DNA from: an uncultured Actinomycetota bacterium
GTDB taxonomy: Bacteria > Actinomycetota > Actinomycetes > Mycobacteriales > Jatrophihabitantaceae
Assembly (NCBI GenBank): GCA_963754285.1
Contig: CAVWFN010000004.1
Span: 214,151 to 238,150, forward strand
Length of the DNA: 24,000 bases
Direction: 5' to 3'
The first letter of the stretch is position 1; every line of letters begins with the position of its first letter. The notes under the pieces were generated by a model that was not told where the DNA came from, ran no database searches, and saw only the letters and a program-made list of their open reading frames with translations. This document shows, piece after piece, positions 10,334 to 15,023 of this stretch. The position numbers and the translations under genes are program-made.

Positions 10334-10798
10334 ATGGCAGACCGAGGCGCGTTACGCGCGAAGTATCTGCATGCCGATCGTCCACCGAGCACTGCTCGCG
10401 GACTGCATCACACCGCCCTGATCAGCAGCGACGTCGAAGCGACGATCCGCTTCTATCAGGACGTGCTCGGGTTCCCGTTGACCGAGCTGATCGAGAACCG
10501 CGACTATCCCGACTCGTCACATTTCTTCTTCGACATCGGCAACGGGAACCTGCTCGCCTTCTTCGACTTCCCCGGCCTCGAGGTGCAGCCATATGCCGAA
10601 GTGCTCGGCGGCTTGCACCACATCGCGATCTCGGTCGACCAGCAGCACTGGGACGGCGCAGTGCGCCGCCTGAGCGATGCCGGGGTCGACCACGAGGTGC
10701 ACAGCGCGGTGTCGGTCTACTTCCGTGATCCGGACGGCGCGCGACTCGAACTGATCGCCGACCCATTGGGCGAGATGTACGGCTCGCACGTGCTCTAG
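10334..10798 (+). CDS. VOC / glyoxalase-bleomycin-resistance-dioxygenase family protein
   Basis: Last 154 codons of ORF 9350..10798, from ATG at 10334. GLHHTALISSDVEATIRFYQDVLGFPL...GGLHHIAISV...VYFRDPDGARLELI are the paired beta-alpha-beta-beta-beta VOC motifs. Confidence 0.9.
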   Translation: MADRGALRAKYLHADRPPSTARGLHHTALISSDVEATIRFYQDVLGFPLTELIENRDYPDSSHFFFDIGNGNLLAFFDFPGLEVQPYAEVLGGLHHIAISVDQQHWDGAVRRLSDAGVDHEVHSAVSVYFRDPDGARLELIADPLGEMYGSHVL

Positions 10799-12021
10799 CT
10801 GCCGACTCCGTCCGGCCAATCAATCCGGTCGAAGTCCGCCCGGAGGCGCGCGGCGAACCGCGCGTCCAACGCGCCGGCCGCAGCGATCCGTCCCAGCAGC
10901 CGCTCGCGCGACACGTTCTGTCCGGGCACGCCGTGCACGCGACAGTTGTGCACGATCGCGCGCAGTCGATCACGTTCGTCGCGTGGCAGCGTCGGATGGT
11001 CGTTGACCACTGCGCCCAACGCAGCAAGCCGACCAGCGTTCGTGCGCACGGACGTCTTGTGCGCCGCCAACACGAAACCCTCGTCGCGCACGATGCCTTC
11101 GACGGCGGCGAGGAATCCCGTGCGCGCACGATGCAATGGCCGCGCGCCGCTGAAGACGAGATCGTCGACATAGCGCGTGTACGTCGCGTCGAAACGGTCG
11201 GCGAGCGCGGCAAGCCGACGATCCAGCCCGAACGCGACTGCGTTGGCCAGCAACGGCGATGTCGGTGCGCCCTGCGGCAGGTGCGGAACGACCAGACGGT
11301 CGCGGAGCCTGCGCTGCGCCTCGATGCCGACCATGTCGCGTGCTCGCGGAACGTCGCGCCACACGGGTGCGGGCATCGCCGTCGTGCACAGGCCGGCAAT
11401 CGCATCGCCCACGGCGGGAGCCACGTCGAAGGCTCGCAACAGACCCCGCACTCGTCCCACCGTCACTGTGGGGAAGAAGCTCTCCAGATCGAGGTGCACG
11501 AGCACCGCTGCACCTGCATGCGGTGTCAGCGCCGACGCCACCGATCGCGACCGCACCCCGCCGTGCGCGCAGTCGTGCAGCGGGATCGCCGCGGTCAAGC
11601 GCCGCAGCAGCCGCCGCTGGATCTGTTTCAACCGCGACTTCGGCGCAGCCACCAGCCGCACGCCGCCACGCTTGGGCAGAGCCCGCCACCGGTAGTGCTG
11701 CAACTTCGGTGCGGCGCGGCGCTCGCGGCTTTGCAGATCGGCGAACCACATCAGCTCGCCGAGATCGACGGCGAGGATCTGGCACAACGCCGAGAGGTCC
11801 GTACGCGGATCGAGCAGGCCAGGCGGCTCGGCGAGGAAGGCTGTCAGCTCCTCGCGCGCGGGAGGTTCGGCGAAGCGGCGGCGCAGCGCGCCGGCGAGGG
11901 CGACCACGTCATCGTCGATGAGCAGCCGCCGGCGCGCTCGGGCGATCCGCAGCTGGATCGCATCGACCTGCCACGGCCCGTCCAGAATGACGTCGACAAG
12001 ATCGTCGTCGCCGGAGGTCAT
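10795..12021 (-). CDS. Retron-type reverse transcriptase (RNA-directed DNA polymerase), stand-alone
   Basis: ORF 10795..12108, with ATG at 12021 preferred (MTSGDDD...). RT motifs: ALPKRGGVRLVAAPKSRLKQIQRRLL (RT1); HLDLESFFPTV (RT2); LPQGAPTSPLLAN at 11254-11280 (RT4); RYVDDLVFSG with YVDD at 11161-11172 (RT5); GRLAALGAVVND...LRAIVHNCRVHG, which resembles the retron VTG / thumb region. No maturase, endonuclease or DGR-type motifs. Confidence 0.9.
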   Translation of the reverse strand: MTSGDDDLVDVILDGPWQVDAIQLRIARARRRLLIDDDVVALAGALRRRFAEPPAREELTAFLAEPPGLLDPRTDLSALCQILAVDLGELMWFADLQSRERRAAPKLQHYRWRALPKRGGVRLVAAPKSRLKQIQRRLLRRLTAAIPLHDCAHGGVRSRSVASALTPHAGAAVLVHLDLESFFPTVTVGRVRGLLRAFDVAPAVGDAIAGLCTTAMPAPVWRDVPRARDMVGIEAQRRLRDRLVVPHLPQGAPTSPLLANAVAFGLDRRLAALADRFDATYTRYVDDLVFSGARPLHRARTGFLAAVEGIVRDEGFVLAAHKTSVRTNAGRLAALGAVVNDHPTLPRDERDRLRAIVHNCRVHGVPGQNVSRERLLGRIAAAGALDARFAARLRADFDRIDWPDGVGS

Positions 12022-12023
12022 GA

Positions 12024-12178
12024 AGCGGGCCGGGGGCGGCTGTTCCCTGACTTGCGCGCCCCGTGCTTCATCTCGTGAAGGTTGAGGGCGTGCGCTGCAA
12101 TGCCACACTCACCGAACTGACCTCGGGGTAGCCCCGAAGTGGTCGACGACCGCCGACCGTCCCTCCCCCGGGCCCGCT
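12024..12178 (-). ncRNA. Candidate structured RNA immediately upstream of the RT (possible retron msr/msd-like or RT-template ncRNA)
   Basis: Long-range inverted repeat: 12162-12178 (cctcccccgggcccgct) vs 12024-12040 (agcgggccgggggcggc). It forms 8+5 bp with one bulge, plus 2 more bp after a mismatch. It encloses three hairpins at 12119-12144, 12081-12113 and 12066-12080. No convincing protein coding. Structure only; no homology evidence. Confidence 0.3.
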
Positions 12179-12320
12179 CCACGCCTTGATTGGATCACGA
12201 GCCGACCTTGACGAAACCGTAGGAGATATCCGGCGCTTGCCGGGATAGCTTGCGTTCGCGGGAGGAATCGGACGTAACCACCCGCGCGAATTTCCCCCGA
12301 ACGCGTCGAGGTTGTTGCGA

Positions 12321-15023
12321 GTGAACCGCCGGATGCCACGTGCTCTGACCGCGCTGTGCGCTGCGGTCATCACCTTTGTCGGCGTCGGCATCTGCACACC
12401 CGCGTCGGCCACACCGACCGGCACGTTCTACGTGTCGAGCGGCGGCCACGACAGCAACACTTGCGACTCGCCGACCTCGACGTGCGCCACGATCGCGGGT
12501 GCACTGATGCAGGCGAGCGCCGGCGACACGATCATCGTCGGCGACGGCACCTATCCCGACCCGGTGACCCTGTCGATGGGGATCACCGTTGAAGGTTGGT
12601 CGTCTCAAACACCTGTTATCACCGCACCGATCACGATCGATGATGCCGGCGCGCCAGTGACGGTCAGCGGCCTCACGTTCGGTGACGGCGGCGGGATCGA
12701 GGTCGACGACAACACCGGGACGACGGCGTTGACGGGCAACACGTTCAGCGATGTGACCGGCCCCGCGATCACGCTGAACGGATCCAACGACCCGAGCAAC
12801 CCGATGGGCGTCACGGTCAGCGGCAACACCGGCAGCGTGCCGGCTGGCGCGCAGCCGATCGCCAGAGCGGCTGCGTCGCGGTGTCGACGGGCGGCGTGCC
12901 CAACGCGATCCGCATCGACGGGGCGACAGTGCATTGCCTGGATCGCCGACCGGCATGACCACCGACGAGGCGCCAACACGCGTCTCGGTGACGGCGGCGC
13001 CGGAACGGCATCTCGACTCGGCGAGCCTCGACGTCGCCGTCACCACAAACTCGGTGAGGCGCCGTCACCAGTCGGATCGCCGATCCGAGCGGCGGCACCA
13101 GCTACGCGCCTGTCCCGCTCACGGGGAGCAATGGGTCTTTCGGCGGATCGCTGACGTCCGCGGATCTCCGTTCGCGGCGACCGGTTCGCTGTCGCCCGGC
13201 GTCACGATCTCGGCCGCGTTGACCGCACCGACCGGTCGCGCCGACGGTGCCGCTCAAGCCTCGACGAGATCGACGGTGGCGATCAGTAGCCCGACACCGT
13301 CGCGACGAATCGTTCCGCCCGACACTGGTCACGCCAACAGCCCGCCGGTCGTGTAACGACCAGAGCGTGACCATCGCGCACGGACAATCGCCACGTCGCA
13401 TCACGCTTCAGCAAGCGACGCTGACGGAGACGGTTGAGGAACTCGCAGACTCCCAGCGGCCGCGCACGGGACGGGCAGTGTCAGTGGGACCGCTCCGAAC
13501 CTGACCTATCAGGCGCCGCGTCGGGGGACTACAGGCCGCAACCGCCTTCACATTCACGGTCACCGATGGAAATAGTGACCCCGCGACACAAACTGTGACG
13601 GTTAACCCGGCACCAAACAGCGTGCCGAGCTACACCGGCCAGAACCTCACCATGGCGCACGGGGCAACCAGCATCGACATCGTGCTCTCAGCTACCGATG
13701 GGGACGCCGGCGACACCCTCGCCTACAGCCACACGCAACCCACCGCCGGGACCGTCACCCAAGGCATAGACGATCACCACCTCACCTACCACGCACCTGT
13801 AGGCGGGCTGCACCAGGCAGCGACGTTCACCTACGCCGTCACCGACGGCTACAGCAACCCGCCCAGCCAAACGATCACCATCAATCCGCCGCCGAACAGC
13901 GTGCCGAGCTACACCGGCCAGAACCTCACCATCCCGCACGGGGCAACCAGCATCGACATCGTGCTCTCAGCTACCGATGGAGACGCCGGCGACACCCTCA
14001 CCTACAGCCACACGCAACCCACCGCCGGGACCGTCACCCAAGGCATAGACGACCACCACCTCACCTACCACGCACCTGCAGGCGGGCTGCACCAGGCAGC
14101 CACGTTCACCTACGCCGTCACCGACGGCTACAGCGACCCGCCCAGCCAAACGATCACCATCAATCCGCCGCCGAACAGCCCGCCGACGCTTAGTACGTCG
14201 TCCCAATCGATCGCGATTGGCGTGCCGGTGAATTCGAGTCAGACGATCACAGTGAATGCGACCGACTCCGACGGCGACATATTGACATACACGCCGTCGA
14301 GCACCGCATTACAAAAGGTGGCGACGAACAAGTTCTCGTACACAGCACCGGCCACGGCCGTGGGCCACACACTCCAGTTCACCGTGACTGTCAGCGATCC
14401 TTACGGTGGTACCGCGATCTCCCAAATAGCGATCTCGGTGGTCCGAGCCGCGTCGCAGGTGACTAAGATTTCGATGTCGCCGTCGCATCCGTCAAGCGCT
14501 GATCACCCGGTGGTAACGGTGACGATGAACTCGGCCGGCAATGAGTCGAATGGTCTTGTCACGATCAAGACCGGCGGGTTCGGCACACCGACGGCAAAGG
14601 TGGTGAACGGGAAGGCGACCAGTCACGTTGCCGCAGTTCCCCGGCGGCGCGCAGAGCATCACCGCGGTCTACGGCGGGACGGCGACGACGGCACCGGCCA
14701 CGTCCAACCAGTTCGGCTTCACGGTCACGAAGGTCGCGAGCAAGATCGCGTTCAAGACCTCTCCCACGCAGTTGACGACGCGCACCAGCAACGCGACGGC
14801 GACGGTCACGGTCACGGCCGGCCCGTTCCGTCCGAGCGGTGGCACCGTGACCATCGACGAGAACGGCAACCGGCTCGCCCAGGGCACGCCGAAGGTCGGT
14901 GTCGTGACGCTGCACCTGCCGCGCTTCTCGCTCGGGCAGCACAACCTGACGGTCGGCTACACCGGTACCGACTCGATCGGTGTCTCGAGCGTCGTCGTGA
15001 TCGAACGCGTCGGGCTGGCCTGA
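12321..15023 (+). pseudogene. Secreted right-handed beta-helix + cadherin-like/Ig-like repeat surface protein; reading frame broken many times
   Basis: GTG at 12321 (GAGG 9 nt upstream). Signal peptide VNRRMPRALTALCAAVITFVGVGICTPASA. Beta-helix-type N-terminus GTFYVSSGGHDSNTCDSPTSTCATIAGALMQASAGDTIIVGDGTY. Protein-like translation then hops between all three frames over 12860-13600, with in-frame stops at 12956, 13152, 13354 and 13502. It continues in the frame of ORF 13595..15067 (93-aa repeats) and shifts at ~14625 into ORF 14628..15023 (LPQFPGGAQSITAVYGGTATTAPATSNQFGFTV, an Ig-like repeat signature). Confidence 0.65.
13616..14173 (+). repeat. Tandem direct repeat, 2 x 279 bp (93 codons), 271/279 identical
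   Basis: Unit A is 13616-13894 and unit B is 13895-14173. I aligned them by eye and found 8 substitutions and no indels. A diverged upstream copy (~13330-13615, frame-broken) and a diverged downstream copy (14174-~14450) flank them. Confidence 0.95.

Follow-up and report, generated by a model that had tools for sequence, protein, structure and literature searches.

The window, that is, the whole 24,000-nt stretch of DNA analysed here, carries on its minus strand an open reading frame (ORF) that runs from an ATG at 12021 to a stop codon at 10795 and encodes a reverse transcriptase (RT) of 408 residues with a YVDD motif. Downstream of the RT lies a convergent gene of the VOC family, and upstream of it a divergent gene for a secreted surface protein with beta-helix and Ig repeats. 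For the latter, located on the plus strand, the most likely start is the GTG at 12321 (MNRRMPRALTAL..., encoding a signal peptide), with GAGG in front of it at 12307-12310; a TTG at 12312 is a weaker candidate. The interval between the two divergent genes comprises a structured RNA next to the RT and, beyond it, an intergenic region that includes the presumed promoter; the coordinates of all these elements are collected in Table 1.

Table 1. Features of the RT cassette (window coordinates; a dot marks a feature without assigned strand).
Feature	Position	Strand	Basis
Retron-type RT with helical N-terminal extension	10795..12021	-	PADLOC, Pfam RVT_1, PDB profile, AlphaFold2 fold
a2, 3' arm of P1, abutting the RT start codon	12022..12039	-	MFE fold and covariation
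J4/1 joining region, 14 nt, ending in conserved G 12040	12040..12053	-	Median 14 nt
P4 stem (12093-12085 with 12062-12054), enclosing P5; msd-like domain	12054..12093	-	Covariation
P5 hairpin	12080-12066	-	Covariation
J3/4 joining region, 26 nt	12094..12119	-	Median 26 nt, 90 loci
P3 hairpin, ACUUCGGGG-CUA-CCCCGAGGU, most conserved element	12120..12140	-	Conservation in 91 sequences, covariation
P2 hairpin, GGUCGGC-GGUC-GUCGACC, first msr-like stem-loop	12141..12158	-	MFE fold and covariation
Candidate branching (priming) G, unpaired, directly 3' of a1	12161	-	Column 25, G in 80/88
a1, 5' arm of closing stem P1	12162..12180	-	MFE fold; pairs with 12039-12022
Divergent intergenic/promoter region, outside the conserved RNA	12183..12311	.	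Folding z; alignable to same-genus loci only
-10-like hexamer TCCAAT, presumed ncRNA-RT promoter	12189..12194	-	Comparison of loci

The order of the VOC, RT and surface-protein genes is syntenic within the genus (window positions 10422-12311 and loci L002-L004). Among these loci the VOC protein is 87-95% identical and the RT only 63-81%, which indicates that the RT evolves faster than its neighbour. The RT of a further genome of the same genus (G004) is 52% identical to that of the window, and neither the VOC nor the surface-protein gene is found within the 1.5-kb flanks of its locus. The occurrence of the cassette at one locus in four genomes of the genus shows signs of vertical inheritance. 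The closest RT homologues, with 80-81% identity, are those of L002 (G006:C4, near 131,520) and L003 (G003:C24, near 63,830), in each of which a single-base insertion of its own just after the YVDD motif splits the RT ORF (equivalent to window positions 11090-11135); the RNAs beside these split RTs are 93-94% identical to that of the window, and the splits reflect either independent decay or indel errors of assembly.

In terms of gene content, the cassette is regarded as stand-alone, because no neighbouring gene is conserved. When ORFs of at least 70 codons from 80 homologous loci with 4-kb flanks were clustered, no shared effector family emerged beyond the RT itself and its antisense shadow ORFs, and the other recurring family reflected nothing but Amycolatopsis-specific synteny. 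Likewise, a domain search recognised no further enzymatic domain in the RT, and genes for SWIM/winged-helix or HEAT-repeat proteins were not found near it.

Concerning the RT, three approaches place it among the retron RTs, namely hidden Markov models, a profile search against the PDB and the predicted fold. In addition to the Pfam match to RVT_1, the PADLOC models returned RT_other (2.4e-121), RT_outgroup (5.4e-115, matched end to end) and RT_XIII (4.8e-72), while the scores of the NCBIfam retron models stayed below their cut-offs. A profile built from 14 RT sequences retrieved retron RTs first from the PDB (1e-42 to 1e-16), with Ec86 as the best match (1e-42) alongside Ec67, Ec78, Kva2, Ec83 and Eco8, and, among non-retron proteins, group II intron RTs at 1e-9 and DRT2 at 1e-7. 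The same ranking is obtained with the AlphaFold2 model (61-sequence alignment, pLDDT 94.1), for which Foldseek gave retron RTs at E = 1e-17 to 1e-12 and DRT2, G2L4 and group II RTs at 1e-9. According to this model, the first ~75-100 residues would form an extra helical region. The histidine of region X and the glycine of region Y are the most conserved residues of those motifs (PMC7736814), and both are invariant here. Region X reads SALTPH in the window and TAxxPH in its relatives, with H168 invariant and the sub-lineage departing from NAxxH, and for region Y the window has ALG, most of its relatives VLG and two of them VTG, an invariant G336 being followed by VVN.

Directly upstream of the RT, the sequence-only reading had proposed a structured leader of ~290 nt in which an inverted repeat encloses three hairpins. 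The pairing of its arms on the RT strand, 12178-12162 with 12040-12024, is confirmed both in the sequence and in the fold, since RNAfold predicts a long outer stem for 12000-12320 on the minus strand (z = -2.83). Its extent, in turn, had to be revised. The 159 nt bounded by the repeat (12180-12022, minus strand) fold with -85.2 kcal/mol and z = -3.24, a value reached by none of 200 shuffled sequences, whereas the distal 129 nt (12183-12311) give z = -0.19 on the RT strand, equalled by 80 of 200 shuffles, and z = -1.73 on the opposite strand. It follows from this contrast that more-than-chance structure is limited to the repeat-bounded part, which reduces the structured unit to ~160 nt. Two further hairpins that had been suggested 5' of the repeat (12255-12290 and 12231-12246) fall into the region that folds no better than shuffled sequence and are located upstream of the promoter position. 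Furthermore, alignment of 12183-12311 succeeds only with loci of the same genus, in which the VOC and surface-protein genes flank the cassette as well; taken together with the z of -0.19, this genus-limited alignability ruled out the upstream 129 nt as a part of the RNA.

The strongest evidence for an RNA at this position comes from comparison of the regions upstream of homologous RTs, a check that the sequence-only reading had put forward and that showed the RNA to be conserved and its helices to covary. In BLASTN comparisons of the leader with the loci of relatives, similarity is confined to the part matching window positions 12181-12026 and persists where the RTs share only ~50-60% amino-acid identity. 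A first alignment of 17 loci was made with MAFFT without reference to structure, and a covariance model was derived from it. The RNAalifold consensus of these 17 sequences contains 37 pairs, 20 of them with compensatory changes, and 92.4% of the cells are paired, compared with 39-47% in controls in which the pairing partners were slid. In the larger alignment of 93 sequences, the corresponding values are 92.5% against 36-52%, with 33 of 37 pairs compensatory and a covariation score of 0.545 versus at most 0.07 in controls. As the 93-sequence alignment was fitted to the model, the count from the 17 sequences serves as the independent control. The a1/a2 arms vary in sequence between homologous loci while keeping their complementarity, with compensatory changes at seven of nine pairs in the structure-blind alignment and at all nine in the 93-sequence one. 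An all-against-all mutual-information scan placed every strong pair inside the model and revealed neither pseudoknots nor extra helices, apart from small extensions of P1 and P5. The segment thus specifies a folded RNA that is conserved, shows covariation in five helices and, lying on the RT strand, abuts the start codon of the RT.

This RNA accompanies the RT over a wide phylogenetic range. With the covariance model, it was recovered from 93 of 100 homologous loci, which span several phyla, and in each case it directly preceded the RT on the same strand. Matches comprise 21 of 22 loci from relatives, including four outside the training set (L004, L015, L006 and L021), as well as 75 of 80 loci from many phyla, taken from a set of 185,579 species genomes; of the five unmatched loci among these 80, three have weak matches (E ~0.002) at the expected place, one a marginal match (E = 0.045) and one is truncated by a contig end. 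Hosts include actinobacteria of the Jatrophihabitantaceae, Amycolatopsis, Nocardioides, Arthrobacter, Curtobacterium and Solirubrobacterales, together with members of the Acidobacteriota, Planctomycetota, Myxococcota and Pseudomonadota. Among 61 related genomes, 22 encode an RT homologue and 21 carry the RNA, all of them RT-bearing, while none of the 39 RT-less genomes has it; the single RT-bearing genome lacking a strong match encodes the most divergent RT and retains an RNA match of 30 bits. The source genome contains one copy, according to a whole-genome search. In one related genome, G012, a second, high-scoring copy (G012:C106:465-635, 138 bits) is found on another contig, and the weaker copy adjoins the RT of that genome. 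No Rfam 15 family was matched in 12022-12311, even at E <= 10.

From 5' to 3', the RNA is organised as a closing stem (P1, formed by a1 and a2), two small hairpins (P2 and P3), a joining region (J3/4), a stem-loop domain (P4 enclosing P5) and a second joining region (J4/1). In P1, 88-91% of the cells are paired and compensatory changes occur at all pairs across 93 loci. Two guanosines face each other at its inner end: the residue following a1 (12161) is G in 80 of 88 sequences (91%), and that preceding a2 (12040, column 242) in 77 of 88 (88%). The former occupies the position of the retron priming G (PMC7736814; 10.1101/2024.01.25.577267), and by this analogy we infer that G12161 is the priming guanosine, whereas J4/1, ending at G12040 opposite the branch G, would presumably provide the first templated bases. 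According to a published retron census, functional retrons typically have a priming G and a G as the first templated base.

P2, overlooked in the sequence-only reading, is paired in 92.5% of the cells of the 93-sequence alignment, with compensatory changes at six of six pairs. It is followed by P3, a yCGGGG-NNN-CCCCGr hairpin present upstream of nearly all homologues. Across 91 sequences its GGGG/CCCC core is almost invariant; 96.5% of the cells are paired, the two closing pairs covary and the closing pair alternates between U-A, C-G and G-C. The conservation of a U·G pair (81 of 91 sequences) fixes the strand of the RNA. P3 is probably the stem-loop recognised by the RT. It corresponds to the inner six pairs (tcgggg-cta-ccccga) of the first hairpin proposed earlier, which therefore stand, while the gacc/ggtc extension assigned to the same hairpin was rejected, as it competes with P2 and, although 87% paired in 17 relatives, shows changes on both sides at only one of four pairs, against six of six for P2. 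The 3' strand of P2 (GACC, 12141-12144) is nevertheless able to pair with GGUC at 12119-12122, just after P3; as this pairing excludes P2, a conformational switch is possible, but sequence conservation alone might just as well produce the pairing.

Another correction concerns the second hairpin suggested earlier (12113-12081), both helices of which are only ~46% paired among homologues, the conserved alternative being P4. The third (12080-12066), by contrast, coincides with P5 and was upheld, with 96.5% of cells paired and four of four pairs covarying in the 93-sequence alignment; for P4 the corresponding figures are 94.4% and seven of seven, and no other pairs in the alignment surpass those of P4 and P5 in mutual information. 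The joining regions are nearly constant in length (25-26 nt for J3/4 and 13-16 nt for J4/1 in the 30 loci listed). In the fold of the window sequence they contribute 7-8 extra pairs, which are not conserved: neither the 93-sequence alignment nor the mutual-information scan disclosed any consistently conserved pairing in J3/4, and a pairing between J3/4 and J4/1 that can be drawn in the window was discarded, because the median number of cross pairs is four and 33 of 90 sequences have none.

On these grounds, 12180-12022 on the minus strand is very likely the msr-msd-type ncRNA of a stand-alone retron of the clade 11 or "outgroup" lineage. All sequence-level hallmarks amenable to testing fit the earlier suggestion of an msr-msd-like template RNA bracketed by a1 and a2. 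P2 and P3 suit the msr part; the msd-like part is a P4/P5 stem-loop of ~12 bp, with a joint of 26 nt on one side and of 14 nt on the other, and not a single long stem. In such a system, the RNA and the RT would be co-transcribed, with a promoter that sets the start at a1, the a1/a2 duplex would set the conserved G12161 beside the 3' end of the template, and the RT would bind the P2 and P3 hairpins. Priming from the 2'-OH of G12161, the enzyme would then begin copying at G12040 and continue across J4/1 and P4/P5, possibly into part of J3/4, to release a short ssDNA of ~55-80 nt.

Among the alternatives, the one that survives best assigns the RNA a non-canonical role beside the RT, as a scaffold, as a conditional template or as one used without 2'-5' branching, so that no branched msDNA would be produced constitutively. 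Recently described type VI retrons and the DRT2 and DRT9 systems act in such ways; a preprint (10.1101/2025.10.22.683967) describes type VI retrons as lacking high constitutive msDNA, and the RT-DNA recorded in the retron census outside its best and worst clades is only "intermediate". A 40-nt stem-loop with single-stranded joints of constant length and with several "msd" positions conserved across phyla is, moreover, somewhat atypical for a mere template, and there is no linked effector. Against this, the a1/a2 stem with its opposing guanosines presents the exact geometry of 2'-OH priming, and the RT is far nearer to msDNA-producing retron RTs than to DRT2 or DRT9. We therefore regard a non-canonical role as unlikely.

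The signals that would govern expression of the cassette emerge mainly from the comparison of loci. In ~63 of 90 homologous loci, a TAnnnT hexamer precedes the first modelled pair of a1 (column 12) by 17-25 nt, against an expectation, by our own estimate, of a few percent by chance at this base composition, and its position indicates that transcription begins at the 5' end of a1. The variant TCCAAT, without A at its second position, is shared by the window and its two closest relatives, which are those with split RTs, and this sub-lineage may have a weaker promoter. A scan for sigma-70 and terminator consensus sequences retrieved nothing, and the -10 signal is perceptible only when loci are compared. 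At the other end of the RNA, a2 is separated from the RT start by at most 5 nt in the window, by 1-30 nt in most loci and by 2-10 nt in many, and no Shine-Dalgarno sequence is visible before the start. Since a2 ends at a start codon devoid of such a sequence, folding of the RNA probably also limits translation of the RT, and the proposal that the 3' arm occludes translation initiation is thus plausible from the sequence.

It might be argued that this is all the element does, and that it represents a cis-regulatory 5' leader controlling translation or stability of the RT mRNA without being reverse-transcribed. The short distance of 2-10 nt between a2 and a start without Shine-Dalgarno sequence in many loci would indeed allow the stem to mask initiation; however, this distance ranges from 1 to ~77 nt even among clear cases, and a simple leader needs neither opposing guanosines, nor an invariant P3, nor conservation across several phyla together with an RT of the retron family. 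Regulation and templating are, in addition, compatible with each other, and a purely regulatory leader appears very improbable.

Even less can be said for a small upstream ORF whose TGA overlaps the ATG of the RT (ATGA) and couples the translation of both, an idea to which we attach practically no weight. An A follows the RT start codon (NTGA) in 49 of 90 loci, and almost always in relatives at family level, which creates a stop codon overlapping the RT start in the -1 frame, and in 34 of these 49 loci the overlapping frame stays open back to a1. The A at +4 is nonetheless accounted for by the common Thr and Ser second codons, and is probably a matter of second-codon bias; open frames of ~50 codons are, by our own estimate, expected by chance at 70% G+C, and more distant groups have ATGC and hence no overlap. 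Within the element, moreover, close relatives differ by single-base indels, loops and joints differ in length by non-multiples of three, and substitutions are pairwise-compensatory instead of codon-periodic. Finally, chance pairing of G/C-rich runs in a genome of ~68-70% G+C, a caveat attached to the arms when they were first noticed, is removed by the compensatory changes in every a1/a2 pair, the z of -3.24 that none of 200 shuffles attained and the single model match per genome, always beside the RT, and is not a credible explanation.

Returning to the msr-msd reading, the toxin-antitoxin logic of retrons is not applicable to this cassette, because there is no effector, which raises the question of the role of a retron without one. 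A speculative answer, to which we give a small but real chance, is that the lineage is not an abortive-infection module but a self-regulating RT-RNA unit in which a1/a2 would gate translation of the RT and the product would act by itself or with an unlinked partner. If this were true, that product would be either the complex of RNA and DNA as such or a cDNA whose synthesis requires a trigger.

Stand-alone retrons of this kind are not new as a concept. Mestre et al. [quoted passage not shown] A survey of 2026 named the clade-11 RNA models OutgroupA and OutgroupB and reported the clade from Actinomycetota, Pseudomonadota and Acidobacteriota. The window cassette is a further member of this class and, as the existence and general architecture of the latter are already published, the gain lies in annotation and detail. 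What is added is an exact map of one cassette from the retron lineage that is least understood, with helices, candidate branch G, template limits and promoter position based on strong covariation, as well as a new covariance model that finds the RNA, a family missing from Rfam, in ~95% of the homologous loci searched in several phyla. Our literature search retrieved no experimental study specific to an actinobacterial or clade-11 retron. [quoted passage not shown] Compact RNA-RT cassettes of this type may serve as DNA-producing tools in high-G+C hosts.

When compared with known systems, the cassette resembles DRT2 and DRT9 in combining a single RT gene and an upstream structured RNA with no separate effector, yet its RT is only distantly related to theirs (1e-7 by profile and 1e-9 by fold). 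To our knowledge, a closing a1/a2 stem with a branching G is a retron design that is not known from either. Regarding the tripartite retron defence types I-XIII, which are defined by a conserved or RT-fused effector, the window cassette shows neither. The nearest typed RT profile is that of type XIII (Mx162, Mx65 and Ne144; RT clade 10), a group whose signs of vertical inheritance are paralleled here by the shared locus in four genomes of the genus; type XIII differs in having SWIM/winged-helix and HEAT-repeat genes and a much longer RNA.

With Retron-Eco1 (Ec86), a canonical retron, the cassette shares the fold of the RT (Foldseek E = 1e-17, TM 0.75 on the target), an RNA composed of a1/a2, a putative priming G, short msr hairpins and then a stem-loop, and the presumed co-transcription of the RNA and the RT. 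Unlike Retron-Eco1, the cassette comprises no effector gene, its RT has a predicted helical N-terminal extension of ~75-100 residues, in place of one long hairpin its msd-like portion forms a short, branched domain joined by single-stranded stretches of constant length, and a2 abuts the start codon. The best agreement is with clade 11, the "outgroup" retrons: the RT matches RT_outgroup over its whole length, the ncRNA lies directly upstream of the RT with a1/a2 arms and opposing guanosines, and no effector is associated. This RT profile match and the shared architecture suggest membership of OutgroupA or OutgroupB, evidence that does not tell the two apart. The taxonomic distribution is in line with such a placement, as the RT lineage is frequent in Actinomycetota and is also encountered in Acidobacteriota, Pseudomonadota and Planctomycetota, a spread that agrees with that reported for clade11-A and clade11-B.
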